Part shown: positions 13,603 through 40,731 of the stretch, piece after piece
Numbering within the stretch: position 1 is the first letter of the stretch
Layout: each line of letters opens with the position of its first letter
The notes under the pieces: model-generated
The model's database searches: none
What the model was told of the DNA's origin: nothing
The model's input: only the letters and a program-made list of their open reading frames with translations
Position numbers and translations under genes: made by a program
Source: a plasmid
Assembly: GCF_054482525.1 (NCBI RefSeq)
Contig: NZ_JBTHVG010000004.1
Strand: one strand, 5' to 3'
Length of the DNA: 64,000 nt

Positions 13603-13957
13603 GTATTCTAATAACTGAATCCACACACAGTCAAATGTCATTATTGTGACTAAAAAACGCTCAATTCTCTGAGGGTGTGGCGGTATGCCTGCTGTGGACT
13701 GCTGTGTCCAGCTTATCCACAGCATTTTGCGCACGGTTCTGTGAATAAAATACCTGGTTACCCAGGCCGTGCCGGCACGTTAACCGGGCTGCATCCGATG
13801 CAAGTGTGTCGCTGTCGCCGGCCTCCTCACCCGGTCACGTTTCGTCGTTCCTCCTCCACGCGCTGCGGCTTCGGGGCCGCACCTGCATTCGTATGCGGTC
13901 GCCCGGTTACAGGTGCGGCACGGCCTGATGGAGGCCGCATGTGAGAGGAGAATTCCC

Positions 13958-14884
13958 ATGCCAAACTGGTGCTCAAATCGTATGCATTTTTCTGGTGAAC
14001 CGGCACAGATTGCTGAGATTAAACGACTGGCCAGCGGTGCAGTCACACCGCTTTATCGCCGCGCCACAAATGAAGGTATTCAGCTGTTTCTGGCCGGAAG
14101 TGCCGGACTTCTGCAGACCACTGAAGATGTGCGGTTTGAACCATGCCCCGGACTGACGGCTGCCGGGCGTGGCGTTGTATCGCCGGAGAATATCGCGTTC
14201 ACCCGCTGGCTGACATACCTGCAGGACGGTGTACTGCTGGATGAGCAAAACTGCCTGATGCTGCATAAACTCTGGCTGCAGAGCGGTACTGGACAGTGTC
14301 GCTGGGAAGGATTACCGGACGATGTCAGGGATACCATCACCGCACTTTTCACCGCAAAAAGAGGTGACTGGTGTGGCTTCTGGAGTAACGAGGATGTATC
14401 GGTGTGGTGGAACCGTCTGTGTGACAACGTACTGCCGGAAAAAACCATGCCGTTTGACCTGCTGACGGTTCTGCCCACCCGCCTGGATGTTGAAGTGAAT
14501 GGCTTTAACGGTGGTGTTCTGAACGGTGTTCCTTCTGCATATCACTGGTATACGGAACAGTATGGCGTGAAGTGGCCTGTGGGGTATGAGGTGAATATCA
14601 GTAGTCAGGGAGACAACTTCATTCAGGTGGATTTCGACACGCCGTGGTGTCAGCCGGAAAGCGACGTTATTGCAGAATTAAGCCGCCGTTTCAGCTGCAC
14701 GCTGGAGCACTGGTACGCCGAACAGGGCTGTGATTTCTGTGGCTGGCAGTTGTATGAGCGCGGAGAGCTCGTTGATGTGCTGTGGGGGGAACTGGAATGG
14801 TCTTCCCCGACAGATGACGATGAGCTGCCGGAAGTCACCGGACCTGCGTGGATAGTCGACAATGTGGCGCATTATGGCGGATGA
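13958..14884 (+). CDS. Hypothetical leading-region protein
   Basis: start at internal Met (MPNWCSN..) preceded by SD gagaggaga; Trp/Cys-rich. Confidence 0.5.
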   Translation: MPNWCSNRMHFSGEPAQIAEIKRLASGAVTPLYRRATNEGIQLFLAGSAGLLQTTEDVRFEPCPGLTAAGRGVVSPENIAFTRWLTYLQDGVLLDEQNCLMLHKLWLQSGTGQCRWEGLPDDVRDTITALFTAKRGDWCGFWSNEDVSVWWNRLCDNVLPEKTMPFDLLTVLPTRLDVEVNGFNGGVLNGVPSAYHWYTEQYGVKWPVGYEVNISSQGDNFIQVDFDTPWCQPESDVIAELSRRFSCTLEHWYAEQGCDFCGWQLYERGELVDVLWGELEWSSPTDDDELPEVTGPAWIVDNVAHYGG

Positions 14885-15268
14885 AGTATGACGGAGACGG
14901 GCGGGAAACCGCCCGTTTCTTTTCCGACAAAGGATGTCGCCGTGCTCCTCTTTTTACTGCGCCGGCTGACGCGGCGCGGCATAAACGCTGCCTGTGGTCA
15001 GTGTCCCGCGTCCGGCCGGGCACGGGACGGGCGCTTTTACCGCTCCCGGCTGGCATCGGTGACAGTGTACGCCAGCCCGTCGCCCTTTTCTGATGAACGC
15101 CCTTCAAGCCGCTTTCGCGGCATATTCTCGCCGTCAAAAAGACGACGGCTGCGATATTCCACGGTCGGCCTGACCCGTTACCGGACGCGGTGAACAGCCC
15201 ACAGGCAGCGGGGAACGGGCACCACAGGGGTGCCCTCCCGGTGCCCTCTGTAAGAGAAGGAGTTTCGT

Positions 15269-15952
15269 ATGTCCCGTTTTGTCCTCGGTAACTGCATCGA
15301 TGTTATGGCCCGTATTCCTGATAACGCCATTGATTTCATCCTCACCGACCCTCCATATCTCGTCGGTTTCCGTGACCGTTCCGGGCGCACCATCGCCGGC
15401 GATAAAACCGATGAGTGGCTGCAACCGGCCTGTAATGAAATGTTCCGCGTGCTGAAAAAAGACGCGTTAATGGTGAGCTTCTACGGCTGGAACCGCGTCG
15501 ATCGCTTTATGGCCGCCTGGAAAAATGCGGGATTCAGCGTTGTTGGTCACCTGGTCTTCACCAAAAACTACACATCGAAGGCCGCATATGTGGGCTATCG
15601 CCACGAATGCGCCTACATCCTGGCAAAAGGCCGTCCACGTCTGCCACAAAAACCGCTGCCGGACGTGCTGGGCTGGAAATATTCAGGCAATCATCATCAC
15701 CCGACGGAAAAGCCTGTTACCAGCCTGCAACCGCTGATTGAGAGCTTCACACACCCGAACGCAATTGTGCTGGACCCGTTTGCAGGCAGCGGCTCAACCT
15801 GCGTTGCAGCCCTCCAGTCCGGACGCCGGTATATCGGTATCGAGCTGCTTGAGCAGTATCACCGTGCCGGACAGCAACGACTGGCTGCCGTACAACGGGC
15901 CATGCAGCAGGGGGCCGCGAATGATGACTGGTTTATGCCGGAGGCTGCGTAA
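15269..15952 (+). CDS. Orphan DNA N6-adenine/N4-cytosine methyltransferase
   Basis: 227 aa; catalytic DPPY motif (LTDPPYL) near N-terminus, FAGSGST SAM-binding motif near C-terminus; no adjacent restriction gene. Confidence 0.8.
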   Translation: MSRFVLGNCIDVMARIPDNAIDFILTDPPYLVGFRDRSGRTIAGDKTDEWLQPACNEMFRVLKKDALMVSFYGWNRVDRFMAAWKNAGFSVVGHLVFTKNYTSKAAYVGYRHECAYILAKGRPRLPQKPLPDVLGWKYSGNHHHPTEKPVTSLQPLIESFTHPNAIVLDPFAGSGSTCVAALQSGRRYIGIELLEQYHRAGQQRLAAVQRAMQQGAANDDWFMPEAA

Positions 15953-17442: not shown

Positions 17443-17507
17443 TGACACTGGCGGGGTAAATCCCCGCCTTTTTCCTGCCGGTCCCCGGACAGAGCACAAA
17501 GGAAGTC

Positions 17508-17842
17508 GCCGCCGGCTCCGCTTTACCCGGCCATGCGGGGCATGGCCTTGTGGTTTTTCAGTTATGTGGCCTCAGCGTCGTGTGCGGGCTGTGCCGTGCC
17601 TCCATCTTAGCCGGGCTGGCGTTGATGCAAGGGTACGCTTCGCCGCTGCGGTCACCCGGTCCCTCCTTCCCGTCTGCCGTGATTTTCCGGTCGTTCACCC
17701 GCTCAGATTTCGCGGTCTCACCCTGCAACTCCCGTCAGCCGTGTGCGTCAGGCTGCGGCTTCCCTTGCGCCCCTGCATCCCCGCCTGTTCGCCCGGCTTT
17801 TATGGAGGCACGGCACCGCCCGGTGTCGCGGAATATGTGAAC
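17508..17842 (+). promoter_or_regulatory. Leading-region repeat family A copy 1 (ssi/Frpo-like single-strand promoter element)
   Basis: about 335 bp GC-rich element nearly identical to 24457-24788; immediately upstream of klcA-like gene. Confidence 0.5.
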
Positions 17843-17858
17843 AACGGAGGAAAACATC

Positions 17859-18284
17859 ATGCAATATGCGAAACCTGTCACTCTGAATGTTGAAGAGTGC
17901 GACCGTCTCTCCTTTCTGCCGTATCTGTTTGGCAACGATTTTCTGTATGCCGAGGCGTATGTGTACGCGCTGGCGCAAAAAATGATGCCGGAATATCAGG
18001 GAGGCTTCTGGCACTTCATCCGCCTGCCGGACGGTGGCGGTTACATGATGCCGGATGGCGACCGTTTCCACATGGTGAACGGTGCAAACTGGTTTGACCG
18101 TACCGTGAGTGCTGATGCCGCAGGCATCATCCTTACCTCCCTTGTGATTAACCGCCAGTTGTGGCTGTACCACGACAGCGGGGATGCAGGACTGACCCAG
18201 CTTTACCGGATGCGCGATGCGCAGTTGTGGCGTCACATCGAATTTCACCCCGAATGCAACGCGATTTACGCGGCTCTGGACTGA
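17859..18284 (+). CDS. klcA: KlcA/ArdB-family anti-restriction protein
   Basis: 141 aa; recalled resemblance to KlcA/ArdB; sits directly behind repeat A. Confidence 0.6.
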
Positions 18285-18330
18285 TTAACGGACGGGGCGG
18301 CAATGCCGCCCCTGTAAAGGAGACGAGAAC

Positions 18331-18753
18331 ATGTACTGTACTGTTAAAGAAATTATCCGCGAAGTGCTGGATACAGACGTGCCGGACAGTGAATGCGTTT
18401 TTGCCGTGGTGCTGACCCGTGGGGATGTGCGTCACATAGCCCAGGACTGGAACCTGTCAGACGATGAGCTGGAAACCGTCATGCAGCGGCTGGACAATGC
18501 CTTTGAGCATGGTGCGGATGTCAGCGTTGTTCACGACGTTGTTCGTGAACTGATGGAAGAAAAGCGCGCCAGCCGTCATGTGACAGTCCCGGCGGTGATG
18601 CTGGAAAAAGTGATGGCGCTGGCAGGCAGTGAAATGAAGCGCCTGTATGCCGTCGGGAGTGAGAACGGGGGCGACGGTGACGCATTCGTCAGGGAGGAAC
18701 GCGAAGCAATGGACGTTGTGTTACAGGCGCTGGACGGGGAGACGATGTCATGA
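18331..18753 (+). CDS. Hypothetical leading-region protein
   Basis: 140 aa; SD aaggagacgagaacATG. Confidence 0.5.
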   Translation: MYCTVKEIIREVLDTDVPDSECVFAVVLTRGDVRHIAQDWNLSDDELETVMQRLDNAFEHGADVSVVHDVVRELMEEKRASRHVTVPAVMLEKVMALAGSEMKRLYAVGSENGGDGDAFVREEREAMDVVLQALDGETMS

Positions 18754-18941
18754 ATATCAGCACAGAAACCCGCGAAATTCTGCGTAATTACAGGGCCGTG
18801 ATTAATGCGCGGCGTCGTGAAATGGGGCAGAAACCGCTCACCACCGCGCAGATTGTTGATGAAATCTGCGATTTTGTGGCGAATCAGCAGGCGGTTTTCC
18901 TGGGCGGTCACTACATCTTACAGGGCAGCAGAAACAGGTGA
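18750..18941 (+). CDS. Hypothetical small protein
   Basis: 63 aa; overlaps upstream stop. Confidence 0.35.
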   Translation: MNISTETREILRNYRAVINARRREMGQKPLTTAQIVDEICDFVANQQAVFLGGHYILQGSRNR

Positions 18942-18974
18942 TACAGGGGCAGGCGGTGGAGGCCGCCTGTCAGC

Positions 18975-19700
18975 CCGCGCGAAAACCCCTGGCAGGCTGA
19001 CGCCTGCCGGAAACGCGGGGTGCAGCGCCTGCGGCGCTGCCGGCCCGGCTTTCCGGTCAGAAGGTAGTGTATGGCTGTATGCCAGGAACAGATGTGATAT
19101 TCCGTGACACTGTCACCGTTTATGGTTGTCTTTTATTGCGCCCACTTCGGCTCCCGGCTGCCTGGCGGCATCCGGTCGTCAGGCCCGACTCCGACAGGCA
19201 GCTGCTGGCGCACCCGCCAGTCTCCGCCGAACCCGCTGGCGCGGTTTCGGGCTGCCGCTACGGTCCGATGCGTGAAAACCCGGGCTTGCAGCGACCGTTA
19301 CGGTCGCGCCGCCCCTGTCGCGCCGTGACCTGCGCTCCCTGCACACCTGACGGTGTGTGAGGAAACTGCGCCTGATGGCGCAGCAGTCCTCCCTCCTGCC
19401 GCCACCCCTGCGGCCTGTTTCCCGCTGTGGACTTTCCGGGGGGCAGACGTAACCCCCTCCCGTTCCATCTGTCCAGGGTGAGATGCACCGGCCACAAAAT
19501 TTTTAGCCATGAACCCGGCAAAAAATTTTGCGTCCGCCCCCGGACAGCTGTCCCGTGAGGCGGTAAACGGGCCCCCATCGGAAAGGTCCACTGCGGGGAG
19601 AAACCCCGAAGAAGTGGACGGCAGGAGGAGCTTTCGCTCCTCTGAAGGGGCACATGAACGTCCCGTCGCCGGTATCCGGTTTATCTCACATCTTTCAGTC
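18975..19700 (+). promoter_or_regulatory. Leading-region repeat family B copy 1 (ssi/Frpo-like) upstream of ssb
   Basis: about 700 bp element with long near-identical stretches at 25355-26030 and partial copy at 28546-28895; ends at SD caggaggtt of ssb. Confidence 0.5.
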
Positions 19701-19711
19701 AGGAGGTTCTT

Positions 19712-20239
19712 ATGAGTGCACGTGGTATCAACAAGGTCATCCTCGTCGGGCGTCTGGGCAATGATCCGGAAGTCCGTTACATCCCCAACGGGGGCGCAGT
19801 GGCAAACCTGCAGGTGGCCACATCAGAAAGCTGGCGTGACAAACAGACGGGGGAGATGCGGGAGCAGACGGAATGGCACCGCGTGGTGCTGTTCGGCAAG
19901 CTCGCGGAAGTGGCAGGTGAATATCTGCGCAAGGGTGCGCAGGTCTACATCGAAGGTCAGCTTCGCACCCGTAGCTGGGAAGATAACGGTATCACCCGTT
20001 ACGTCACTGAAATTCTTGTTAAGACCACGGGCACCGTGCAGATGCTGGGACGTGCACCACAGCAGAACGCTCAGGCGCAACCGAAGCCTCAGCAGAATGG
20101 GCAGTCACAGAGTGCTGACGCGACGAAAAAAGGTGGCGCGAAAACGAAAGGCCGTGGACGTAAGGCCGCGCAGCCAGAGCCTCAGCCGCAACCGCCGGAG
20201 GGGGAGGATTACGGGTTTTCAGACGACATCCCGTTCTGA
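19712..20239 (+). CDS. ssb: Single-stranded DNA-binding protein
   Basis: 175 aa; OB-fold N-terminus, Gln/Pro-rich linker, acidic tail ending DDIPF. Confidence 0.9.
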
Positions 20240-20296
20240 TCGGGCTGACTGTGACAACCGCCCCGCCCTGTGCGGGGCATCACCGGAGATATGAGG

Positions 20297-20530
20297 ATGA
20301 GCGAATATTTCAGAATACTTCAGGGACTGCCGGACGGCTCCTTTACCCGCGAACAGGCGGAAGCCGTTGCCGCACAGTACCGGAACGTCTTTATCGAGGA
20401 TGATCAGGGAACGCATTTTCGCCTGGTTGTCCGTCAGGATGGCACGTTGATCTGGCGCTCCTGGAATTTTGAGGACGGTGCCGGGTACTGGATGAACCAG
20501 TACATCAGGGATTTCGGGATTCTTAAGTAA
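20297..20530 (+). CDS. Hypothetical small protein
   Basis: start at internal Met (MSEYFRIL..) of track ORF 20270..20530. Confidence 0.45.
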
Positions 20531-20582
20531 GAGAGGTGCCGGACGCGCAAACGTCCGGCAGGACATAAGCAATTATAAGGGG

Positions 20583-22547
20583 ATGATTATGCCTGTAACG
20601 AAGTGTGAACCAGAAACCACCCGCAAAGCAAGCCGTAAATATGTAAAAACGCAGGAAACTGCACTGTCTGCCCTGCTGGCGCAGACGGAGGAAGTGAGCG
20701 TGTCGCTGGCCTCACTGATTAAGTCACCGCTGAATGTGCGCACGGTGCCGTATTCTGCGGAGTCCGTCAGCGAACTGGCTGAGTCCATTAGGGGCGTTGG
20801 CCTGCTGCAGAATTTGGTCGTGCATACCCTGCCTGGTGACCGTTACGGTGTCGCCGCAGGTGGTCGCCGACTGGCTGCACTCAACATGCTGGCAGAGCGT
20901 GGCATCCTTACGGCTGACTGGCCTGTACGCGTGAAAATTATTCCGCAGGAGCTGGCGACTGCCGCATCAATGACTGAAAACGGTCATCGTCGGGATATGC
21001 ACCCTGCCGAACAGATTGCCGGATTCCGTGCAATGGCGCAGGAAGGCAAAACGCCTGCACAAATCGGTGATTTGCTGGGCTATTCGCCCCGCCATGTCCA
21101 GCGAATGCTGAAACTGGCTGACCTTGCGCCTGTCATCCTCGATGCGCTGGCAGAAGACCGCATCACCACAGAGCACTGTCAGGCGCTGGCGCTGGAGAAC
21201 GACACCGCGCGTCAGGTGCAGGTGTTTGAAGCCGCCTGCCAGTCGGGATGGGGCGGTAAACCGGAAGTACAGACCATTCGTCGTCTGGTGACCGAAAGTG
21301 AAGTGGCGGTGGCGGGGAACAGTAAATTCCGCTTCGTGGGGGCTGATGCCTTCTCGCCAGACGAACTGCGCACCGATTTGTTCAGCGACGACGAGGGTGG
21401 CTATGTGGACTGCGTGGCGCTCGATGCCGCCCTGCTGGAAAAACTCCAGGCTGTCGCAGAGTTCCTTCGGGAAGCCGAAGGCTGGGAATGGTGCGCCGGA
21501 CGCATGGAGCCTGTCGGTGAGTGCCGTGAGGATGCCGGAACATACCGCTGTCTGCCGGAGCCGGAAGCGGTGCTGACGGAGGCAGAAGAAGAACACCTGA
21601 ACGAACTGATGACGCGTTACGACGCGCTGGAAAACCAGTGTGAGGAATCCGACCTGCTGGAAGCAGAAATGAAGCTGATTGACTGCATGGCGAAGGTCAG
21701 GGCGTGGACGCCGGAGATGCGTGCCGGAAGTGGCGTGGTGGTGTCCTGGCGTTATGGCAACGTATGTGTCCAGCGTGGTGTGCAGTTGCGCAGTGAAGAT
21801 GACGCGACTGACGACGCTGACCGCACGGAACAGGTGCAGGAGAAAGCGTCAGTGGAGGAAATCAGCCTGCCGTTGCTGACGAAAATGTCCTCAGAGCGCA
21901 CGCTGGCAGTCCAGGCGGCACTCATGCAGCAGCCGGACAAATCTCTGGCACTGCTGGCATGGACGCTCTGCCTGAATGTGTTTGGCAGCGGGGCGTACAG
22001 TAAACCAGCACAAATCAGCCTGGAATGTGAACATTACTCGCTGACCAGCGATGCGCCATCGGGGAAGGAAGGTGCCGCATTCATGGCGCTGATGGCAGAA
22101 AAAGCCCGTCTTGCTGCCCTGTTACCGGAGGGATGGTCACGGGACATGACGACATTCCTGTCACTCAGTCAGGAGGTGCTGTTATCCCTGCTCAGCTTCT
22201 GCACTGCGTGCAGCATCCACGGTGTTCAGACCCGTGAGTATGGTCACACGTCACGCAGTCCGCTGGACTCGCTGGAAACCGCTATCGGCTTTCACATGCG
22301 CGACTGGTGGCAGCCGACAAAAGCAAACTTCTTCGGACACCTGAAAAAGCCGCAGATTATCGCAGCCCTGAATGAGGCAGGACTGTCCGGTGCCGCACGG
22401 GACGCGGAGAAGATGAAGAAAGGCGATGCCGCTGAACATGCAGAGTTCCATATGAAAGACAACCGCTGGGTGCCTGGCTGGATGTGTTCACCACGTCCAC
22501 AGACGGATGCCACTGAACGCGCCGATAACCTGGCTGATGCCGCCTGA
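20583..22547 (+). CDS. ParB/Srx N-terminal domain (ParB-like nuclease) protein of the leading region
   Basis: 654 aa; ParB-like N-terminal domain, HTH-like segment. Confidence 0.65.
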   Translation: MIMPVTKCEPETTRKASRKYVKTQETALSALLAQTEEVSVSLASLIKSPLNVRTVPYSAESVSELAESIRGVGLLQNLVVHTLPGDRYGVAAGGRRLAALNMLAERGILTADWPVRVKIIPQELATAASMTENGHRRDMHPAEQIAGFRAMAQEGKTPAQIGDLLGYSPRHVQRMLKLADLAPVILDALAEDRITTEHCQALALENDTARQVQVFEAACQSGWGGKPEVQTIRRLVTESEVAVAGNSKFRFVGADAFSPDELRTDLFSDDEGGYVDCVALDAALLEKLQAVAEFLREAEGWEWCAGRMEPVGECREDAGTYRCLPEPEAVLTEAEEEHLNELMTRYDALENQCEESDLLEAEMKLIDCMAKVRAWTPEMRAGSGVVVSWRYGNVCVQRGVQLRSEDDATDDADRTEQVQEKASVEEISLPLLTKMSSERTLAVQAALMQQPDKSLALLAWTLCLNVFGSGAYSKPAQISLECEHYSLTSDAPSGKEGAAFMALMAEKARLAALLPEGWSRDMTTFLSLSQEVLLSLLSFCTACSIHGVQTREYGHTSRSPLDSLETAIGFHMRDWWQPTKANFFGHLKKPQIIAALNEAGLSGAARDAEKMKKGDAAEHAEFHMKDNRWVPGWMCSPRPQTDATERADNLADAA

Positions 22548-22598
22548 TGAACAACCACACCGCCCCGCCGGAGACGGGGCGGCAGAGGGAGAAATACG

Positions 22599-23036
22599 AT
22601 GATGAATACCGAACTGACACTGAATGCCCTGCAGTCCATGAATGCCCAGGAATATGAAGAAATCCGTGCTGCGGGAAGCGATATGCGCCGTAATCTCACT
22701 CACGAGGTGATGCGTGAAGTGGACGCACCAGCTAACTGGATGATGAACGGAGAGTATGGCAGCGAGTTCGGGGGCTTTTTCCCCGTCCAGGTTCGTTTCA
22801 CGCCAGCCCACGAACGTTTCCACCTGGCATTATGTTCGCCGGGAGACGTCTCTCAGCTCTGGATGCTGGTTCTGGTGAATGGTGGTGGACAGCCTTTCGC
22901 CGTCGTTCAGGTGCAACATATCTTCACGCCTGTCGCGATCAGTCACACGCTGGCGCTTGCCGCGACACTGGATGCGCAGGGATACAGTGTTAACGACATC
23001 ATCCATATCCTGATGGCAGAAGGAGGTCAGGCATGA
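22599..23036 (+). CDS. psiB: Plasmid SOS inhibition protein PsiB
   Basis: 145 aa; near-colinear similarity to F PsiB as recalled (..[13 protein letters not shown].., ..[35 protein letters not shown]..). Confidence 0.9.
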
Positions 23037-23752
23037 GCGCACGTTCACGGGCACTGATCCCCCTCAGCGCAGAACAACAGGCCGCCATGCAGGCGGTGGC
23101 TGTCACAGAACAACGTCGTCGTCAGGGACGCACACTTTCAGCATGGCCTTATGCCACCGCTTTCTTTCGCTGCCTGAATGGCAGTCGCCGGATTTCGCTG
23201 ACCGATCTCCGCTTTTTTGCCCCTGCGCTGACGAAGGAGGAATTTCATGGCAACCGTCTCCTGTGGCTGGCTGCCGTGGATAAACTGATTGAAAGTTTTG
23301 GGGAAGTCTGTGTTCTTCCCCTGCCATCCGATGCGGGGCACCGTCTGTTCCCGTCCGTGCCTTTTCGTGAAGGTGAGCGTCGTCGTCAGAAAACCACGCT
23401 GACAGAGCAGAAATACAGCCGCCAGCGGGAACGTGAGGCAGAACGACGGGAACTGGAATACCAGACATGTTTTGCTCAGGCGCAGATTGACCTTGCGTTT
23501 CATACTCCCGCCACGGTCGGAAGCTGGTTGTCCCGCTGGTCTGGTGTTGTTGAGGAGCATGATCTGGAAACGATTTTCTGGGGGTGGTGCGGGCGTTTTC
23601 CGTCACTGTCATCATTTGACCGGTTTTTCTGGCAGGAGGAACCACTCTGGCGGCTGATTTTTGAAGCCGGTGAGGCCGGTCGTGGTGCACCGATACAGGT
23701 ACGTGCACTTGAGCAGTGGATGATCCCGAACAAGCTGGAGAACGTAATATGA
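23033..23752 (+). CDS. psiA: PsiA
   Basis: 239 aa; overlaps psiB stop. Confidence 0.75.
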
Positions 23753-24345
23753 TGAAATCAGACGAAAAATACCAGGTTCCCGCGTGGATGCGACCTCTGT
23801 TGCCGTTGCTCTGCAACACCGGGGGGAACGATCCGGAAGAACTGCTGAATGATACAGAAACCACTGCCAGTGCGAATGTTGTCCGTTATGTACTGATAGT
23901 TGCTGTGCGGTCGCAGGTTGATCTGCTGCAGCTTCTGTACAGGAAAGGGCTGTTGCGCACAGAGATACCAGGTGGCTTTTCACCGGAAGAAGCGCAGGCA
24001 CTCCTGGATAATCTGGTGCGCAGCCATATCAGCAAGGCGCTGTCGGGCGAGCGAATGGCAGCCCGTGACAGAAATGCCGATCTGGCCTGGATTAGACAGC
24101 AACTGGTCGATGCCGCCTGGTTTGTCCGTGCCACACTGGAAGCGCATGGGATGAGCGTCGGAAATGAGAGTCCCCCTGCTCCGCCGGAGACAATGCCGGA
24201 CATACAGACACGGGAACTGGTGATGTTGATCAAGCGACTGGCATCATCGCTGAAAGCGGTGAAACCGGACAGTTGTGTGGTGCGTGAAGCGCAGGACTGG
24301 CTGCGCGACAGAAAACTTGTGGATATCACAGATATTCTCCGGTGA
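23749..24345 (+). CDS. Hypothetical protein
   Basis: start at internal Met overlapping psiA stop. Confidence 0.45.
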   Translation: MMKSDEKYQVPAWMRPLLPLLCNTGGNDPEELLNDTETTASANVVRYVLIVAVRSQVDLLQLLYRKGLLRTEIPGGFSPEEAQALLDNLVRSHISKALSGERMAARDRNADLAWIRQQLVDAAWFVRATLEAHGMSVGNESPPAPPETMPDIQTRELVMLIKRLASSLKAVKPDSCVVREAQDWLRDRKLVDITDILR

Positions 24346-24456
24346 ACCAGGCATGTATATTTTACGCAGGGACATGCCGGTCATGATCGTTTCGTTCCAG
24401 GGGTGGTCTGGAGATCATGCGGTGTGCTCCCTGCTCTCGCCGGAATAAGGACGTCG

Positions 24457-24788
24457 CCGCCGGCTCCGCTTTTACCCGGCCATGCGGGGCATGGCCTTGT
24501 GGGTTTTCAGTTATGTGGCCTCAGCGTCGTGTGCGGGCTGTGCCGTGCCTCCATCGTAGCCGGGCTTCTGCGGGCGGGTTGCAAGGTAAGGTGAACCGCT
24601 GCGGTCACCCGGTCCCTCCTTCCCGTCCGCCGTGATTTTCCGGTCGTTCACCCGCTCAGATTTCGCGGTCTCACCCTCCAACTCCCGCCAGCCGTGTGCG
24701 TCAGGCTGCGGCTTCCCTTGCGCCCTTGCAACCCTGCAGGCCCGGCAAAGATGGAGGCACGGCACCGCCCGGTGTCGCAGAACATGTG
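24457..24788 (+). promoter_or_regulatory. Leading-region repeat family A copy 2 (ssi/Frpo-like) upstream of ardA
   Basis: near-identical to 17508-17842. Confidence 0.5.
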
Positions 24789-24806
24789 ACTATGGAGGAT
24801 TCGGGA

Positions 24807-25307
24807 ATGTCTGTTGTTGCACCTGCTGTATACGTTGGAACCTGGCACAAATACAACTGTGGAAGCATCGCCGGACGCTGGTTTGACCTGACCACGTTTG
24901 ATGATGAGCGCGACTTTTTCGCCGCCTGCCGTGCTCTTCACCAGGATGAAGCCGATCCTGAACTGATGTTTCAGGATTATGAGGGATTCCCGGGGAATAT
25001 GGCCTCTGAATGCCATATCAACTGGGCCTGGGTTGAAGGCTTCCGCCAGGCACGGGATGAAGGCTGCGAAGAGGCTTATCGTCTCTGGGTGGAGGATACC
25101 GGTGAGACGGATTTTGACACCTTCCGCGATGCCTGGTGGGGCGAGGCTGACAGTGAGGAGGCTTTTGCGGTTGAGTTCGCCAGTGATACCGGCCTGCTGG
25201 CTGACGTGCCGGAGACGGTGGCGCTCTATTTTGACTATGAGGCGTATGCGCGGGATTTATTCCTGGACTCCTTCACCTTTATTGACGGTCATGTGTTCCG
25301 TCGGTGA
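24807..25307 (+). CDS. ardA: Anti-restriction protein ArdA (DNA mimic)
   Basis: 166 aa from internal Met (MSVVAPAVYVGTWHKYN..); very acidic; matches ArdA as recalled. Confidence 0.9.
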   Translation: MSVVAPAVYVGTWHKYNCGSIAGRWFDLTTFDDERDFFAACRALHQDEADPELMFQDYEGFPGNMASECHINWAWVEGFRQARDEGCEEAYRLWVEDTGETDFDTFRDAWWGEADSEEAFAVEFASDTGLLADVPETVALYFDYEAYARDLFLDSFTFIDGHVFRR

Positions 25308-25354
25308 TTTACTCCCCCGCTCCGGCGGGGGTATGGCCTGCCAGGCCGCCGGAA

Positions 25355-26030
25355 AACCCTGGCAGGCTTACGCCTGCCTGAAATGCAGGAGGGCCGCGCC
25401 TGCGGCGCTGCCCTTCCTGCCCGTCATGGTGTGAGGCATTTTTCTGTTATGTCGTTTCTGTTGTTCTGATTTCCGGAGGCGGGGACACCTTCGGCTCCCG
25501 GCTGCCTGGCGGCATCCGGTCGTCAGGCCCGACTCCGACAGGCAGCTGCTGGCGCACCCGCCAGTCTCCGCCGAACCCGCTGGCGCGGTTTCGGGCTGCC
25601 GCTACGGTCCGATGTCTGAAAAACCAGGCTTGCAGCGACCGTTCCGGTCGCGCCGCCCCTGTCGCGCCGGAAACGGCGCTCCCTGCACACCTGACGGTGT
25701 GTAAGGCCACTGCGCCTGATGGCGCAGTCAACCCTTCCGCCGCCACCCCTGCGGCCTGTTTCCCGCTGTGGACTTTCCGGGGGCTGGAGTAACCACATCC
25801 CGTTTCAGCAGTCCAGGGGAAGATATACCGTCCACAAAATTTTTAGCCATAAACCCGGCAAAAAATTTTGCGTCCGCCCCCGGACAGCTGCCCCGTGACG
25901 TGGTGACGGACGCCCCATCGGAAAGGTCCACTGCGGGGAGAAACCCCGAAGAAGTGGACGGCAGAAGGGGCTTTCGCCCCTCCGGGGAGCAACCGGTCGG
26001 CCCGGCGACCTGATTCAGCAGAAGGAGACG
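25355..26030 (+). promoter_or_regulatory. Leading-region repeat family B copy 2
   Basis: long identity with 18975-19700; ends just upstream of ORF 26036. Confidence 0.5.
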
Positions 26031-26035
26031 TTTTC

Positions 26036-26470
26036 ATGACTGTCAGCAGCACGATTTCCGTTTTTTGCCGCGACGGGGTGTTCCGTACCGTTTACTGCCA
26101 CCTGCACGGTGAGCCGACCTGGAACGGTCGCATCCTGCATACCCACTATGCCACCGGTCAGCAGGCCGAAGCCCTGGTTGAACACGGTGATATCCGTTGC
26201 CTCGGTCCCCGTTGCGACAAACCCGCCGGGCATACGCTTCAGAACCCGGTGGACGGTGTGACGGCTTATTACGGACGTGACAGTGGTTTCCGGATGGACA
26301 GTGAGGCGCGTGAGTACCGTTCTTTCAGGGAGGCTATTGCCACTGAAAGCACTGAAGAGGTGCGCTTCCATTATGTGTTCATCGACGGCTACTGGAAGGT
26401 GATGTACCGCACGCCGGAAGGCTGGAAGATGAAAGCGCTCGCGCTGGCACTGCGTCGCTGTCCGAAATGA
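26036..26470 (+). CDS. Hypothetical protein immediately downstream of repeat B copy 2
   Basis: 144 aa; SD ggagacgttttcATG. Confidence 0.5.
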   Translation: MTVSSTISVFCRDGVFRTVYCHLHGEPTWNGRILHTHYATGQQAEALVEHGDIRCLGPRCDKPAGHTLQNPVDGVTAYYGRDSGFRMDSEAREYRSFREAIATESTEEVRFHYVFIDGYWKVMYRTPEGWKMKALALALRRCPK

Positions 26471-26562
26471 AAAAAGGCAGGGCGATAAACCCTGCCTCTC
26501 TCCGCCGGCGCTTCCCCGCCAGGAAGTCCGGCATCTCAATCACTATCTATGGAGATTATGCC

Positions 26563-26829
26563 ATGAGACCATCAATTATCTTCGCAACCGCCGAGTATGT
26601 AAAGCGTCTGCGTGAAGAGTGCCTGCGGGAGAATAAACCCCTGCACCGCCATACCCGCTTCAGACGTCAGGAGCTGGCACAGGATGAGATTAACCCGGAC
26701 GTCCTGGCGATGAGCGGCCATATCGCCAGACGCTGCAGTGAGCAGAAGCGGGTGCGTATCCCCGCTATGAAAGTCAGCGAATGGGGCCACCTGCTCCGCG
26801 CGCTTGAAATTGAGCGGGTCTGCCACTGA
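26563..26829 (+). CDS. Hypothetical small protein
   Basis: start at internal Met (MRPSIIF..) preceded by ggag. Confidence 0.4.
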   Translation: MRPSIIFATAEYVKRLREECLRENKPLHRHTRFRRQELAQDEINPDVLAMSGHIARRCSEQKRVRIPAMKVSEWGHLLRALEIERVCH

Positions 26830-26893
26830 TTAACCCTTGCCGTCTGCCTGTGCAGGCGGCAGGATACGTTCAGACATCTCACCAGGAGGAACC

Positions 26894-27784
26894 GTGAGTA
26901 AGAAGAAAACCACCACGACGCCCACGCCGCATGATGCCGCGTTCCGGTCGTTCCTGGCGAATCCCGACGTCGCCAGAGATTTTCTGGAACTGCATCTTCC
27001 GGCGGAGTACCGGCAGTTGTGCGACCTGTCCACGCTGAAGCTGGAACCCGCCACCTTTGTTGAGCCGGACCTGCATCAGTACGCCAGCGATATCCTCTGG
27101 AGTGTGAAAACCACCGGGGGTGAAGACGGCTATGTTTATACGCTCATCGAGCACCAGAGCACCGAAAATCTGTACATGCCTTTCCGCATGTTACGTTACA
27201 GTGTGGCGGCGATGCAGAGACATCTGGAGCAGCACAAAACGTTGCCACTGGTGATTCCTGTGCTGTTCTATCATGGTGAGCGCAGCCCGTACCCGTACAG
27301 CATGAACTGGCTGGACTGTTTTGAGAATCCGGCACTTGCGGCTAAAATATACACAAAGCCGTTTCCGCTGGTTGATATCACTGTCGTTGATGACAATGAA
27401 ATCATGAACCATCGCCGGATGGCCGCACTGACGCTGCTGATGAAGCATATCCGCCATCGTGACATGATGGATCTGCTGGACAAACTCCCGCAGGTCATGG
27501 TGGAAATTTCAGACGAGCAGGTGCGTGTTCTGATTCATTACATCGTTAACGCAGGGGACTCTGTATCACCGGAATTTATGCGGGCGCTGGCTGAGCGTCT
27601 GCCGCAGCATGAGGATAAACTGATGACTATCGCAGAACGTCTTGAGCAAAAAGGTCGCCAGGAAGGAGCGCTTGAAAAAGCCCTGGCTATTGCGTGCCAG
27701 CTTCAGAAAATGGGGATGACGCCGGAGCAGATTAAGCAGGCTACCGGACTTTCCGAAGCTGAACTGAAAAAAATCATTCACTGA
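26894..27784 (+). CDS. Rpn-family (YhgA-like, PD-(D/E)XK Transposase_31) recombination-promoting nuclease
   Basis: GTG start after SD aggagg; N-terminal ..HDAAFRSFL.. and ..YTLIEHQS.. motifs typical of Rpn/YhgA proteins. Confidence 0.7.
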   Translation: MSKKKTTTTPTPHDAAFRSFLANPDVARDFLELHLPAEYRQLCDLSTLKLEPATFVEPDLHQYASDILWSVKTTGGEDGYVYTLIEHQSTENLYMPFRMLRYSVAAMQRHLEQHKTLPLVIPVLFYHGERSPYPYSMNWLDCFENPALAAKIYTKPFPLVDITVVDDNEIMNHRRMAALTLLMKHIRHRDMMDLLDKLPQVMVEISDEQVRVLIHYIVNAGDSVSPEFMRALAERLPQHEDKLMTIAERLEQKGRQEGALEKALAIACQLQKMGMTPEQIKQATGLSEAELKKIIH

Positions 27785-27796
27785 TGAGAGCATCAC

Positions 27797-27822
27797 AGCC
27801 CGGCAAAATGCCGGGCTTTTTT
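27797..27822 (+). terminator. Rho-independent terminator-like hairpin after rpn
   Basis: agcccggca-aaa-tgccgggct followed by tttttt. Confidence 0.5.
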
Positions 27823-27846
27823 GTCAGCAGGAGCAGAGAAAACAGT

Positions 27847-28041
27847 ATGACGCTTGCAGAACGTCTTATACAGAAAGGTTTCGACGAAGGTTTTAAAGAA
27901 GGTTTTAAGAAAGGTGCGCTTGAAGTGGCGCGGGAAGCAGCCTGCCGGCTGCGGGATATGGGCTGGACGCCGGAACGGATTCAGGAGGCGACCGGACTTT
28001 CCGGTGAAGAACTGAAAAAGCTGTTTCCTGATGAGCAGTAG
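27847..28041 (+). CDS. Small protein resembling the C-terminal domain of the upstream Rpn nuclease
   Basis: MTLAERLIQKG...WTPERIQEATGLSGEELKKL aligns with Rpn C-terminus MTIAERLEQKG...MTPEQIKQATGLSEAELKKI. Confidence 0.45.
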   Translation: MTLAERLIQKGFDEGFKEGFKKGALEVAREAACRLRDMGWTPERIQEATGLSGEELKKLFPDEQ

Positions 28042-28071
28042 CCTGACATTCTGCCAGGCTGTGAATCACGC

Positions 28072-28323
28072 TCACACATTCCCTGCCGTTTCCCCCAGTT
28101 CATTTTCCAGACGCCTGATGATATCTGCCTTGCGCATCCCCTGCATGTGAGGCAGCAGGTCACGGACTGAAAGTGCCTGGGTGGTCCTCCAGACGGTGAC
28201 GTCCACCTGTTCCGCATTTTCCCAGGCGTGCCATGTTCTCTGCGTCACGCCAAATTCTCTGGCCGCTTTTTCGCGTGACCATAGCATGCTTTTTCGCCAG
28301 ATTCGCAGTTCCCAGCCGGTCAT
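28072..28323 (-). CDS. HTH (Cro/XRE-like) DNA-binding protein
   Basis: 83 aa; ..REKAAREFGVTQRTWHAWE.. HTH; palindromic operators upstream. Confidence 0.55.
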   Translation of the reverse strand: MTGWELRIWRKSMLWSREKAAREFGVTQRTWHAWENAEQVDVTVWRTTQALSVRDLLPHMQGMRKADIIRRLENELGETAGNV

Positions 28324-28337
28324 AAAACACCTTTGAA

Positions 28338-28425
28338 AAAGTGAAAAAACTTCACTTTATTTTATCATCACAATTGCCAAATCAGCGCGATAAATAAGTG
28401 TAAAAAAGTGAAGAAATTTCACTTT
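28338..28425. promoter_or_regulatory. Two copies of palindrome AAAGTGAA-N-TTCACTTT upstream of HTH gene (operator candidates)
   Basis: aaagtgaaaaaacttcacttt at about 28338-28358 and aaagtgaagaaatttcacttt at about 28405-28425. Confidence 0.5.
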
Positions 28426-28545
28426 TTTTGTTTGTAAGTGTCGTGCGGTTTTCTCTGTTTTCACCTGTGCGGGAGTGGTGTGCCAGTGACCACCACATGC
28501 CATTGTTGTGCCGTCGTTTTTCTTCAGTCGCGCCGGATGCGGCGC

Positions 28546-28895
28546 TCCCTGCACACCTTACGGTGTGTAAGGCCACTGCGCCTGATGGCGCAGCTGTCTC
28601 TTGCCTGTCTGCCGCCGCACTGCGGCCTGTTCTCCGCAGACGGACTTTCCGGGGGTACATACACGACCACATCCCGTTTCAGTCGTCCAGGGGAGAGATG
28701 TACCAGCCACAAAACTTTTTGCCGCTGGCGTCAAAAACTTTTGCGTCTGCCCCCGGACAACTGCCCCGTGACGTGGTGAGCGTCCCCCGTCGGAAAGGTC
28801 CACTGCGGGGAAATACCCTAAGACCCGGACGGCAGAAGGAGCTTCGCTCCTCCGGGAAATGACCTGGCTGACCCGGCAGTCGTGACGATGAGGAG
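28546..28895 (+). promoter_or_regulatory. Leading-region repeat family B, partial copy 3
   Basis: matches the 3' two-thirds of copies at 18975-19700 and 25355-26030. Confidence 0.45.
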
Positions 28896-28900
28896 ACAAT

Positions 28901-29752
28901 GTGATGAATCAGACTTTACCCACTGCTGACCTGAATACTGCCGGCACGACAGATGTTATTCCGTCTGTGGCTATCGACCGCATCATCGCGCAGCGTAACG
29001 AAGGTATTGCACTATTCATGCAGGCGATGGAATGCCTGGCGACAGCGCGCAGGATTCTGCTCGATGCGTCAGGTGATATTTTTCTTTACGGGTTTGAAGA
29101 CTGCGTGACTGATTCCGTTCGTCGCATGGATAAGCCGGAAGAAGCGAAAAGGAATATCACCCGTCTTGCCGACCGGAAAATCTGGGACCGCCTGATGACA
29201 GATACGGGCATGTACACCTTCATGAGTTCATGCCAGCGTGATGAGTGGAACAGCCAGCTGATGAGCGACACCTGTCCTGAAATCACCCTGGACAATGTAC
29301 TGGCAACATTCCGCCATCTTAATACCAGCAAGATGCAGACGTTTGAACAGGGACTGATTGATGTCTACCGGAAATTGTCATGGGATTACAGAACCAATAA
29401 TCCCTGCCGTCTGGGCAAGAAAATCATTATTGAAAACATGCTGTACCGCTGGAGTAACGGGCGTGTGACGCTGGACTGCAGCGGACGGGAGGCACTGGAT
29501 GACCTGGTACGTCCTTTTTATCTGCTGGAGGGGCGAAACGTTCCTGACTTCCGGAGCAGCATCGGGGCGCAGTATGGTGAATTTCTCGGGAACGGCGACA
29601 ACGTCGGTAAGCTGTTAGAAGGGGAATATTTTACGGTGCGTGGCTACCAGAAAGGGACCGTACACATTGTCTTTAAGCGTCCTGACCTTGTTGAAAAACT
29701 GAATGATATTATTGCACGGCATTATCCTGGTGCATTGCCGCCACGAGTCTGA
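28901..29752 (+). CDS. Hypothetical protein, first leading-region gene next to oriT
   Basis: 283 aa; preceded by repeat B copy 3 and SD aggagacaatgtgATG; followed by terminator. Confidence 0.55.
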   Translation: MMNQTLPTADLNTAGTTDVIPSVAIDRIIAQRNEGIALFMQAMECLATARRILLDASGDIFLYGFEDCVTDSVRRMDKPEEAKRNITRLADRKIWDRLMTDTGMYTFMSSCQRDEWNSQLMSDTCPEITLDNVLATFRHLNTSKMQTFEQGLIDVYRKLSWDYRTNNPCRLGKKIIIENMLYRWSNGRVTLDCSGREALDDLVRPFYLLEGRNVPDFRSSIGAQYGEFLGNGDNVGKLLEGEYFTVRGYQKGTVHIVFKRPDLVEKLNDIIARHYPGALPPRV

Positions 29753-30184: not shown

Positions 30185-30370
30185 CTCCGTTTCATGTTGA
30201 AGTCTGATTTTATCATCAAAAACTGACTCCTGGCAGGGCTGCGCCCTGCTTCTGCCGTCTGCATAAGACTATGATGCACAAAAATAACAGGCTATAATGG
30301 CCTGAAAAACGGGACAGGATGTGCAATTGTAATACCGTCACACGCGACGCTATTACAATTGCCATCTGGT
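30185..30370. other. oriT: oriT region (origin of transfer) upstream of nikA
   Basis: perfect 12 bp inverted repeat gcaattgtaata / tattacaattgc at about 30323-30363 and GC-rich IR gcagggc..gccctgc; immediately upstream of nikA. Confidence 0.6.
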
Positions 30371-39140: not shown

Positions 39141-39310
39141 ATAAAAGGATTGTTGCAGATACGAAAGTCGTTAGAATAGCCGCGGACGCTTGAGGCTGTA
39201 TGCCGAAAGCGTTTTGTGGATGGTATACAGCAGAAAGCCCCCTGGAGATTTTTTATCAATCAACCAGGGGCTCTACTGTAATGCCTAGACAACATTATAG
39301 TAGCCTGATA
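39141..39310 (+). repeat. Truncated upstream copy of the pnd (hok/sok-type) leader, direct repeat of 40562-40731
   Basis: about 170 bp roughly 93 percent identical to the leader in front of pndA; contains the mok-frame start atgccgaaagcg but diverges just before the pndA SD. Confidence 0.6.
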
Positions 39311-39353
39311 ATTTAGATATGTGTACATCCTACCGGAAAAGATACTTTTCAGG

Positions 39354-40561: not shown

Positions 40562-40731
40562 ATAAAAGGATTGTTACAGATACGAAAGTCGTTAGAATAG
40601 CTGCGGGCGCTTGAGGCTGTATGCCGAAAGCGTTTTGTGGACGGTATACAGCAGAAAGCCCCTGGAGATTTTTTTATCAATCAACCAAGGGCTCTACTGT
40701 AATGCCTCAACAACATTATAGTAGCCCGATA
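40562..40731 (+). repeat. pnd leader copy 2 (functional copy upstream of pndA)
   Basis: direct repeat of 39141-39310. Confidence 0.6.
40570..40640 (-). ncRNA. pndB: Putative PndB (Sok-like) antisense RNA region
   Basis: inferred only from hok/sok organisation (antisense to leader around the mok start); no promoter mapped. Confidence 0.25.

Follow-up and report, generated by a model that had tools for sequence, protein, structure and literature searches.

Some DNA signals are active only when one specific strand is single and folded, among them integron attC sites, phage N4 early promoters and the priming signals of the phage G4/phiX type. Their hairpins are recognised by an integrase, a phage virion RNA polymerase, or primase/PriA, and not by the host sigma-70 RNA polymerase. 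They are much shorter than the repeats described below and have no sequence relationship to them.

The closest described systems belong to conjugative plasmids. Host RNA polymerase is reported to transcribe single-stranded but not duplex DNA at F Frpo, ColIb-P9 ssi3 and their pESBL orthologs (PMC12672017, PMC9849209). In pESBL, the start sites of six ssDNA promoters have been mapped by 5' RACE; class 1 comprises ssi1-3/Frpo, and class 2 the hairpins upstream of klcA and ardA, which have no homology to Frpo/ssi, carry the start site inside the stem and are induced in transconjugants, as seen by 5' RACE and RNA-seq (PMC12672017). A class 3 promoter lies upstream of M.EcoGIX and is called ssp3 in F. 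Early expression in F needs Frpo1 and Frpo2 (PMC9849209), and F ssp2, which lies upstream of yfgB, acts both as a promoter and as a UvrD-resolved roadblock to complementary-strand synthesis (bioRxiv 10.64898/2026.01.09.698686).

The 64,000-nt stretch of plasmid DNA analysed here (the window) contains two repeat families, A and B, which a sequence-only reading had compared with Frpo/ssi promoters. Both belong to kinds of hairpin promoter that have already been described, and that reading is right in its outline without being novel.

Leading region and transferred strand

The window represents the leading region of a conjugative plasmid of the IncI-gamma/K1 (IncI1-like) type. It is 98.7% identical across 16 kb to the IncI-gamma/K1 plasmid pSI173-1, and the gene order in the matching region is klcA, ssb, psiB, psiA, ardA, nikA, nikB. 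The nick motif was recognised by the MOBP nic consensus, YATCCTG/Y. It is on the minus strand, which is therefore the transferred strand; NikB would nick this strand at oriT, at about 30315. The nicked minus strand is led into the recipient by its 5' end, so that the DNA of lower coordinates enters first, and it also serves as template for all leading genes on the plus strand. The view of a conjugative leading region with repeats placed just upstream of plus-strand genes holds.

All copies of the repeats point the same way with respect to oriT and the gene that follows. B1, B2 and B3 lie 1.5-11 kb from nic, on the first-entering side and upstream of plus-strand genes. The G+C content of the repeats is 62-65%, against 51% for the window. 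The KlcA/ArdB-type protein encoded downstream of A1, WP_001198928.1, is identical in pSI173-1 and pESBL, and the 144-aa gene downstream of B2 has no NCBIfam match.

A blastn comparison of the window with itself recovers five copies in two families, far beyond chance, and neither blastn nor nhmmer profiles find a further copy of A or B elsewhere in the 64 kb. The copies had been described as nearly identical with a few mismatches. This was an overstatement; 9-21% of positions differ, and there are indels in addition. A1 and A2 are 88.9% identical over 360 columns (blastn, E 1.5e-130). The full copies of B1 (18965-19645) and B2 (25336-25984) share two blocks, 18965-19041 with 25336-25412 (85% identity) and 19145-19642 with 25489-25982 (91%, E 0, both by blastn), with about 100 nt of unrelated sequence between them. 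B3 (28527-28856 in the blastn match) is 79-81% identical to B1 or B2, and begins at about 28525 rather than at 28546 as first given. The copies had also been said to end at ribosome-binding sites. This is true of family A, whose similarity extends across the Shine-Dalgarno sequence of the gene behind it, A1 ending 8 nt short of the klcA-type ATG (17859) and A2 8 nt short of the ardA ATG (24807), but the similarity in family B ends 45-70 nt before the start codons.

Table 1. Coordinates of hairpin elements, putative promoter boxes, genes and the nick motif in the window
Feature	Position	Strand	Remarks
Element X	13763-13927	minus	165-nt hairpin upstream of DUF1281 gene; shorter relative of family A
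Class 3 counterpart (candidate)	14986-15210	minus	hairpin just upstream of methylase gene; z -6.8 for 14885-15268
A1, putative class 2 single-strand promoter	17499-17851	minus	upstream of klcA/ardB-type antirestriction gene; homology and fold
A1 small far-end hairpin	17529-17547		conserved, G+C-rich; then plus-strand T-run, terminator-like
A1 main hairpin	17585-17822	minus	inverted repeat; non-template arm 17585-17633, gene-proximal template arm 17770-17822
A1 putative -10-like hexamer	17604-17609	minus	TAAGAT; non-template arm, central AAG in 3-nt internal loop
A1 putative -35-like hexamer	17625-17630	minus	TTGCAT; 15 nt upstream of TAAGAT
Antirestriction gene, KlcA/ArdB type	17859-18284	+	downstream of A1; RefSeq annotation of near-identical plasmids
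B1 extension	18965-19314	minus	short G+C-rich hairpin array; blocks 18965-19041 and 19145-19314, unrelated insert between; z -3.59
B1 core, putative class 1 promoter	19315-19645	minus	upstream of ssb; ColIb-P9 'Frpo3' (AJ238399:11381-11711), 98.5% over 331 nt
B1 putative TAC/TGT-type hexamer	~19446-19451	minus	about 18 nt downstream of -35-like hexamer; conserved internal loop
B1 putative -35-like hexamer	19470-19475	minus	TGGACA; paired stem; from conservation and pairing
Plasmid ssb	19712-20239	+	downstream of B1; first gene of ssb-parB-like-psiB-psiA operon; NCBIfam PRK13732, E 4e-116; annotation
A2, putative class 2 single-strand promoter	24447-24799	minus	upstream of ardA; variant mid-stem allele; homology and fold
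A2 putative -10-like hexamer	24553-24558	minus	TACGAT
A2 putative TTGCAA hexamer	24579-24584	minus	20 nt upstream of TACGAT
ardA antirestriction gene	24807-25307	+	downstream of A2; annotation of near-identical plasmids
B2 extension	25336-25658	minus	homologous to B1 extension; z -6.15
B2 core, putative class 1 promoter	25659-25984	minus	upstream of 144-aa gene; ColIb-P9 'Frpo2' (AJ238399:4353-4678), 99.7% over 326 nt
B2 putative -35-like hexamer	25810-25815	minus	TGGACT; paired stem
144-aa gene	26036-26470	+	first downstream of B2; open reading frame, annotation
B3 core, putative class 1 promoter	28525-28854	minus	upstream of DUF4942 gene; ColIb-P9 'Frpo1' (AJ238399:1459-1787), 98.5% over 330 nt
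B3 putative -35-like hexamer	28684-28689	minus	TGGACG; paired stem
DUF4942 gene	28904-29752	+	downstream of B3; open reading frame, annotation
oriT nick-region motif	30315-30320	minus	ATCCTG/T, read in the sequence; 8 nt after 17-bp-type inverted repeat

Family B and family A elements

The comparison with Frpo/ssi holds for the family B cores and fails for family A. The cores match the ColIb-P9 Frpo1-3 reference sequences (PMC11541004, supplementary file 4; Table 1) and occupy the positions of ColIb-P9 ssi1-3, one preceding ssb, one preceding the gene that follows ardA, and one closest to oriT. They can be aligned with F Frpo1 and Frpo2 at 75-81% identity with many compensatory pairs. The B cores, F Frpo and the ColIb-P9 elements share one fold, an imperfect hairpin of ~240 nt with an A/T-rich apex and, on the T-strand, four small 3' hairpins; there is no substantive difference from the published class 1 elements. 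A class 1 profile built from five sequences matches only B1-B3 within the window.

Only the 330-nt core of the up to ~700 bp originally assigned to the Frpo/ssi architecture conforms to it. About half of B1 and of B2 is made up of an additional conserved segment of 250-350 nt, lacking in B3, that falls outside the published class 1 elements of 326-331 nt and differs from the extension common to F Frpo1 and Frpo2. In both copies G+C-rich hairpins open this segment right behind the stop codon of the preceding gene, and the B1 extension is present at 95-99% identity in at least 5000 plasmid records.

By its sequence, family A falls among the class 2 (ssp2) promoters, which have been described separately, and not among Frpo/ssi. 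A1 is 97.2% identical to the klcA-upstream hairpin of pESBL and 96.0% to the sequence upstream of the antirestriction gene in F, and A2 is 92.8% identical to the ardA-upstream hairpin of pESBL. The class 2 elements of pESBL (Wen et al., NAR 2025) and F ssp2 have the same downstream genes and the same fold as A1/A2, but F carries one copy where this plasmid carries two. Membership of family A in class 1 was ruled out by blastn and profile searches: A and B do not match each other (blastn, word 9, E <= 1e-3), nor does the five-sequence class 1 profile match A or the class 2 profile match B (nhmmer, E <= 10). A metagenomic relative is listed in PMC11541004 as the candidate "Frpo' 4". Judged by eye, this class 2 homolog has a hairpin of other sequence in place of the small far-end hairpin, whose counterpart in A2 is at ~24478-24496.

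In ssDNA folding predictions, both families fold better as the minus strand. For A1 the minus-strand fold has -84.3 kcal/mol (z -3.85) and for A2 a z of -4.93, and in family A the minus strand is 2-5 kcal/mol more stable than the plus strand. The difference is 10-14 kcal/mol in the B cores (12.8 in the B1 core), and full-length B1 folds as minus-strand DNA with a z of -6.7. The lower stem of family A is near-perfect, with ~29 paired positions. Pairing survives two-sided changes at 27 of 120 class 1 pairs (16 of 34 in a wider class 1 set) and, with the 82%-identical metagenomic homolog included, at 7 of 80 class 2 pairs. Homology, transferred strand, strand-specific folding and covariation are shown for the window itself.

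Putative promoter boxes can be placed on these folds. In class 1, a paired TGGACN is conserved about 18 nt upstream of a T(A/G)(C/T)nnn that sits in a conserved internal loop and is a weak match to a -10 hexamer. In class 2, the pattern TTGnnn-N15-TAnnnT recurs among homologs on the non-template arm; the 15-nt spacing is short and the hexamer matches are weak. A2 is a variant in which both mid-stem arms are replaced and the TTG motif precedes the -10-like hexamer by 20 nt instead of 15, a spacing with which the allele may behave differently. The ardA copy of pESBL, as well as that of the 98.5%-identical pC21-F2, has the A1-type stem; the variant is found at 95% identity or more in at least 1388 of the best 5000 plasmid records. 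Swapping the stem patches of A1 and A2 in silico changed the stability predicted by only 2-6 kcal/mol, with no compensation seen.

The suggestion of ongoing gene conversion between copies receives some support in family A, from mosaic stem alleles among close relatives, and none as a recent process in family B. Compared with the ardA copy in relatives of 98.5% identity, A2 has both mid-stem arms replaced, and the only informative sites in the family A core group the copies by plasmid. The pESBL copies upstream of ssb and of the 144-aa gene align closely with B1 and B2 and all their variable sites sort by locus; in family B, 131 sites group this plasmid and pESBL by locus and 0 by plasmid.

Two further hairpins lie at lower coordinates than the five copies. 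That at 14986-15210, a strong one outside the sequence-only reading, is likely the counterpart of the class 3 promoter, sharing the region, strand logic and long-hairpin type of A and B, but present in single copy and unrelated in sequence to either. Element X has a lower stem and a TTGCAT-N15-TAACGT motif similar to those of family A.

Alternative roles of the repeats

The repeats might mainly be single-strand initiation (priming) signals, the expression of downstream genes being incidental, although we consider this improbable. F Frpo was first isolated as the priming signal ssiD, and in vitro its transcripts serve as primers for DNA synthesis (Masai and Arai 1997, as cited in later work), and early conversion downstream of ssp1/Frpo is rifampicin-sensitive in vivo (bioRxiv 10.64898/2026.01.09.698686). 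Each copy is, however, directly upstream of a correctly oriented plus-strand operon. IncI plasmids, moreover, encode their own primase. Six pESBL operons have mapped start sites (PMC12672017), and the effect on DNA synthesis reported for class 2 is stalling, not priming. For class 1, priming seems to be an additional function rather than an alternative.

It is more doubtful still that the elements function at the level of duplex DNA or RNA, as ordinary promoters, as terminators/insulators between operons, or as structured 5' UTRs controlling translation. For the plus strand, promoter prediction gives no duplex promoter of the sigma-70 type in front of any of the five genes, and this RNA-sense strand folds worse than the minus strand. 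A transcript starting inside the stem would contain one arm only, so that the long hairpin cannot form in RNA. Expression of the leading genes also drops once the DNA is double-stranded (PMC12672017, PMC9849209). Such a role would fit the terminator-like hairpin and plus-strand T-run with which family A opens (17529-17547), the hairpins that follow the upstream stop codons in the B1/B2 extensions, and the part of each hairpin that would lie in a transcribed 5' UTR; a terminator/insulator add-on formed by the small flanking hairpins is possible.

Selfish or structural palindromes (MITE, REP or ERIC-like) or duplication scars without a promoter role can also be long, imperfect, G+C-rich, intergenic and multicopy and exchange sequence between copies, but this origin is scarcely credible for repeats that lie on plasmids at 6708 of their 6787 places in complete E. 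coli genomes (family A; 79 are chromosomal), are absent from the other 50 kb of the window, keep one fixed orientation to oriT and the next gene, retain stem pairing by compensatory changes in distant homologs, consistently fold better as the minus strand, and have orthologs with experimental start sites (PMC12672017).

Probable expression from the entering strand

The repeats are very probably two kinds of single-strand (T-strand) hairpin promoter that drive the plus-strand leading genes. Promoter activity is carried over here from the orthologs in pESBL, ColIb-P9 and F, and the start sites, induction in recipients and ssDNA dependence would follow those in the literature on 97-99%-identical orthologs. 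On the entering single strand, each repeat would fold, as minus strand, into a long imperfect hairpin whose stem mimics a duplex promoter, with the -35-like hexamer paired and the -10-like hexamer in a partly unpaired bubble. The host sigma-70 RNA polymerase would bind the stem and transcribe the gene-proximal arm into the downstream operon, until synthesis of the complementary strand abolishes the hairpin and, with it, the activity of the promoter. The B1, B2 and B3 cores would drive ssb-psiB-psiA, the operon of the 144-aa gene and the DUF4942 gene, respectively, and class 1 transcripts probably prime complementary-strand synthesis as well. A1 would drive klcA/ardB and A2 ardA.

By analogy with F ssp2, A1 and A2 probably also stall complementary-strand synthesis until unwound by UvrD, which would lengthen the window of single-stranded expression; the roadblock has been demonstrated for the single F ssp2 only, to which A1 is 96% identical. 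Two class 2 copies may mean two roadblocks. We infer this role, like the exact promoter boxes, for the plasmid studied here.

It is a tentative and rather unlikely proposal that the region holds undescribed working parts, element X being a seventh single-strand promoter (a short class 2) and the B1/B2 hairpin arrays accessory modules. Operon insulation is one role that the arrays might have, another being to hold up complementary-strand synthesis on its way to the class 1 promoters. If element X is a promoter, zygotic induction would reach beyond the six operons mapped in pESBL. With the hairpin promoters, the plasmid's genes for anti-restriction, SSB and SOS inhibition would be expressed in a new host before the entering DNA becomes double-stranded.

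Two repeat families and two promoter classes

The leading region of this IncI-gamma/K1 plasmid carries five copies of two repeat families. The sequence-only reading had described them from inspection, and self-comparison of 15-31 kb together with searches of the full 64 kb shows that they are real. Family A consists of A1, upstream of the klcA/ardB-type gene, and A2, upstream of ardA; family B consists of B1, B2 and B3, upstream of ssb, a 144-aa gene and the DUF4942 gene, respectively. No further copy of either family was found in the 64 kb (blastn with 9-nt words, profile search), nor was any similarity between A and B detected (blastn with 9-nt words, reciprocal profile searches). The G+C content of the repeats is 62-65%, compared with 51% for the window. 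A1 and A2 align with E 1.5e-130 and 88.9% identity over 360 columns; what distinguishes them is concentrated in two patches. B1 and B2 align in two blocks, 18965-19041 with 25336-25412 (85% identity) and 19145-19642 with 25489-25982 (91% identity), separated by ~100 nt of unrelated sequence, and the third copy (28527-28856) aligns with the last 330 nt only, at 79-81% identity. The copies are thus less alike than the "near-identity" first ascribed to them, and B3 starts at ~28525 rather than 28546. The claim that the repeats end at the ribosome-binding site holds for family A, which runs through the site, but not for family B, in which similarity ends 45-70 nt before the start codons.

The initial interpretation as Frpo/ssi-type single-strand promoters is correct in kind, but it lumped two distinct classes, both already known: knowledge of class 1 (Frpo/ssi) dates from 1997-1999, that of class 2 from 2025-2026. 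Supplementary file 4 of PMC11541004 lists three Frpo/ssi repeats of ColIb-P9 (AJ238399), and each family B core matches one of them. The B cores are 75-81% identical to the F plasmid elements Frpo2, which precedes ssb, and Frpo1, which precedes ygeA; thus, judged by sequence identity, the cores are known class 1 single-strand promoters.

In pESBL transconjugants, six operons are described as strongly induced, the start site of each being mapped by 5' RACE (PMC12672017; NAR, December 2025). The account given there distinguishes: i) class 1, ssi1-3 and Frpo; ii) class 2, the hairpins preceding klcA and ardA, which resemble each other and are described as without Frpo homology; and iii) class 3, a promoter 5' of M.EcoGIX. 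A1 shares 97% identity with the sequence preceding klcA in pESBL and 96% with the one preceding the F antirestriction gene; for A2 and the sequence preceding ardA in pESBL the value is 93%. Given this likeness and the published classes, family A belongs to class 2 rather than to Frpo/ssi. The F copy was named ssp2 in a 2026 preprint, in which it stalls complementary-strand synthesis at the stem end until UvrD resolves it, prolonging expression from single-strand promoters (10.64898/2026.01.09.698686). The metagenomic candidate "Frpo' 4" of PMC11541004 is 82.5% identical to A1.

Of 5426 complete E. coli genomes, 3687 (68%) carry family A. The plasmid collection search returned at least 5000 records, all at 90% identity or above, distant homologs not being among them; divergent sequences for comparison were drawn from the PMC11541004 supplement. 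In the 40 family A rows listed, the element is unannotated in RefSeq or overlaid by a "hypothetical protein", with one row called an antirestriction protein; one PLSDB record names it a "DUF1472" protein. No Rfam family covers the family A or B elements.

Coordinates of the repeats, hairpins and neighboring loci
Feature	Coordinates	Strand	Description
A1	17499-17851		family A
A2	24447-24799		family A
B1 core	19315-19645	minus	ColIb-P9 Frpo3, 98.5% identity
B2 core	25659-25984	minus	ColIb-P9 Frpo2, 99.7% identity
B3 core	28525-28854	minus	ColIb-P9 Frpo1, 98.5% identity
B1/B2 extension	18965-19314, 25336-25658		conserved hairpin array
Element X	13763-13927	minus	165-nt hairpin upstream of DUF1281 gene (13982-14884)
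Methylase-upstream hairpin	14986-15210	minus	single-copy; methylase gene at 15269-15952
Inverted repeat and nick motif	30360-30312	minus	
85-aa ORF and Rpn C-terminal similarity	27530-27781 and 27784-28038	plus	ORF directly after rpn gene
Helix-turn-helix regulator gene	28072-28323	minus	
Paired palindromes	28337-28360, 28404-28427		just before B3
sok antitoxin RNA	39184-39341	plus	Rfam, 132.8 bits
sok antitoxin RNA	40605-40762	plus	Rfam, 84.6 bits
AgrB antisense RNA	41387-41474	minus	Rfam, 53.7 bits

Transferred strand, folding and proposed promoter mechanism

Over 16 kb, the region shares 98.7% identity with pSI173-1, an IncI-gamma/K1 plasmid, and more than 5000 plasmid records match this stretch. 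The annotated order is DUF1281, methylase, antirestriction (KlcA/ArdB type), ssb, parB-like, psiB, psiA, ardA, rpn, DUF4942, nikA and nikB; NCBIfam gave no match for the ArdA, KlcA, 144-aa, 120-aa and DUF4942 proteins. An inverted repeat on the minus strand is followed by GCACATCCTG|TCCC, which we take to be a MOBP-type nick motif and which identifies that strand as the transferred one. The lower-coordinate DNA enters first, and the leading genes, all carried by the plus strand, are templated by the minus strand.

Folded as DNA, the minus strands gave z-scores of -3.85 (A1), -4.93 (A2) and -6.67 (B1 with its extension). They exceed the plus strands in stability by 10-14 kcal/mol (cores of B1, B2 and B3) and 2-5 kcal/mol (family A), an advantage expected if the functional strand tolerates G·T pairs. 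With the non-template strand taken as the gene-distal arm read from apex to base, the class 1 stem has a paired TGGACN hexamer and, ~18 nt downstream of it, a T(A/G)(C/T)nnn hexamer in a conserved internal loop, with an A/T-rich apex above both. The distal arm of A1 reads TTGCAT, 15 nt, TAAGAT, the middle of which falls in a 3-nt internal loop, and then an almost perfect stem of 29 positions; that of A2 reads TTGCAA, 20 nt, TACGAT. The TTGnnn-N15-TAnnnT layout is found again in a metagenomic class 2 element and in shorter relatives. We infer that these hexamers are the promoter boxes of class 1 and class 2. Pairs kept through changes on both sides number 27 of 120 in class 1 (B1-B3 with F Frpo1 and Frpo2), 16 of 34 after Serratia, Salmonella and metagenomic relatives are added, and 7 of 80 in class 2, metagenomic relative included. 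Homology, strand polarity, folding and covariation of the elements are direct observations of this analysis.

In the proposed mechanism, each repeat would fold on the entering minus strand, and host RNA polymerase would bind the pseudo-duplex stem with its pre-opened -10 region, reading first the arm next to the gene and from there on into the operon. Synthesis of the complementary strand, moving in the same direction as transcription, would flatten the hairpin and shut the promoter off. Start sites, induction and single-strand dependence are taken from papers on the orthologs. The repeats were also weighed as priming signals only; the priming and roadblock roles are literature-reported additions to promoter activity, not alternatives to it. 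Class 1 transcripts probably double as primers, and class 2 hairpins probably also delay conversion, a roadblock role inferred for this plasmid. Action of the elements at the duplex or RNA level was weighed as well; no duplex sigma-70 promoter was predicted on the plus strand upstream of the five genes. Selfish palindromic repeats (MITE/REP-like) are excluded by four lines of evidence: 6708 of the 6787 family A places in complete E. coli genomes are on plasmids, element orientation is fixed, the stems covary and one strand is systematically the better folder.

Possible exchange between copies, the family B extension and further hairpins

Ongoing gene conversion, suggested earlier for the repeats as a whole, has support in class 2, in which a mid-stem segment has been replaced, but none as a recent process in class 1. 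The ardA copies of pESBL and pC21-F2 (the latter 98.5% identical to the window overall) have an A1-type mid-stem, whereas in the ardA copy of the window both arms of the segment are replaced together. One metagenome contig combines an A2-type stem with klcA-type flanks. Among the 5000 best plasmid records, the A2-type allele is present in at least 1388 (at 95% identity or above) and the other stem allele in at least 3602. When the class 2 core of this plasmid is compared with that of pESBL, counting parsimony-informative sites only, three sites group by plasmid and none by locus. These patterns lend support to class 2 gene conversion. In silico swaps of the divergent A1/A2 stem patches, in one or both arms, shift the predicted energies by 2-6 kcal/mol without consistent direction and so do not bear on compensation. 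For class 1, the comparison with pESBL has 131 sites that follow the locus and not one that follows the plasmid, and the sequences give no sign of recent exchange. Paralogs within a lineage are 90% identical (B1/B2, F Frpo1/Frpo2) and orthologs between lineages 75-81%, while the neighboring ssb genes are 93% identical between lineages; the likeness of class 1 paralogs fits older concerted evolution or independent duplication.

B1 and B2 share an extra 250-350 nt on the gene-distal side that B3 lacks and that lies outside the published 326-331-nt elements. This extension is an array of short G+C-rich hairpins (z -3.6 and -6.2), is kept in pESBL and is matched by at least 5000 plasmid records with 95-99% identity. 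F Frpo1 and Frpo2 carry a different shared extension of their own. Some records annotate the B1/B2 extension as a hypothetical ORF, for example "yffB". ORFs annotated across it are not conserved, and a coding role was rejected: the pESBL ORF is not intact in the window, which has a 1-nt indel relative to pESBL and only shorter, different ORFs.

Element X, upstream of the DUF1281 gene, lies in a 417-nt intergenic region with a z-score of -6.2. X is similar to family A in the lower stem and in a promoter-like motif, TTGCAT-N15-TAACGT (nhmmer E 0.031), and it is found in 4821 plasmid records, F included. Aligned with Frpo* 1 and Frpo* 3, low-certainty candidates of PMC11541004, X keeps 17 of 48 pairs through double changes. 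X is a candidate for a further single-strand promoter, a seventh beside the six whose start sites were mapped in pESBL; its folding energy is ~-50 kcal/mol, and it may therefore have been missed by the hairpin search in that study, for which a threshold of -75 kcal/mol is given (PMC12672017). The motif that A and X have in common, CTTGCATC-N5-CAGCCCGGYTAA, was found by exact-pattern scanning in 10 stretches of a 100,044-species genome collection, with no new diversity; those checked are near-identical pieces of enterobacterial plasmids, in Escherichia or gut MAGs. Leading-region fragments in three gut MAGs (L007, L009, L013) are probably mis-binned plasmid contigs. One 149-nt stretch of X recurs, at 88-92% identity, in an Alicyclobacillus plasmid (L008), Raphidiopsis (L012) and Aeromicrobium (L015), presumably as mini-F (BAC or fosmid) vector carry-over.

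The hairpin upstream of the methylase gene (region 14885-15268, z -6.8) is probably a class 3 (M.EcoGIX/ssp3) promoter. It overlaps a "hypothetical protein" ORF (14881-15192), which, if the assignment is right, is probably spurious.

Neighboring loci and significance

Over 60 residues, the 85-aa ORF shares 55% identity with the Rpn C terminus (E 1e-17); it is a stand-alone copy of the C-terminal domain of Rpn and accounts for the direct repeats D6 and D10. Two copies of the palindrome AAAAAGTGAA(A/G)AAA(C/T)TTCACTTT lie in an A/T-rich stretch by the helix-turn-helix regulator gene; they look like operator sites. The two sok RNAs and the AgrB RNA are type I toxin-antitoxin loci and, from the pESBL gene order, should lie beyond trbA.

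For the window itself, the value of these assignments is in annotation and teaching. Three points go beyond confirmation: i) the conserved B1/B2 extension; ii) the shift of two common class 2 stem alleles between the klcA and ardA positions; and iii) the short class-2-like hairpin upstream of the DUF1281 gene. Hairpin promoters of this kind allow resistance plasmids of the IncI and IncF groups to switch on their anti-restriction, SSB and SOS-inhibition genes minutes after entry, and they are therefore relevant to blocking plasmid spread.
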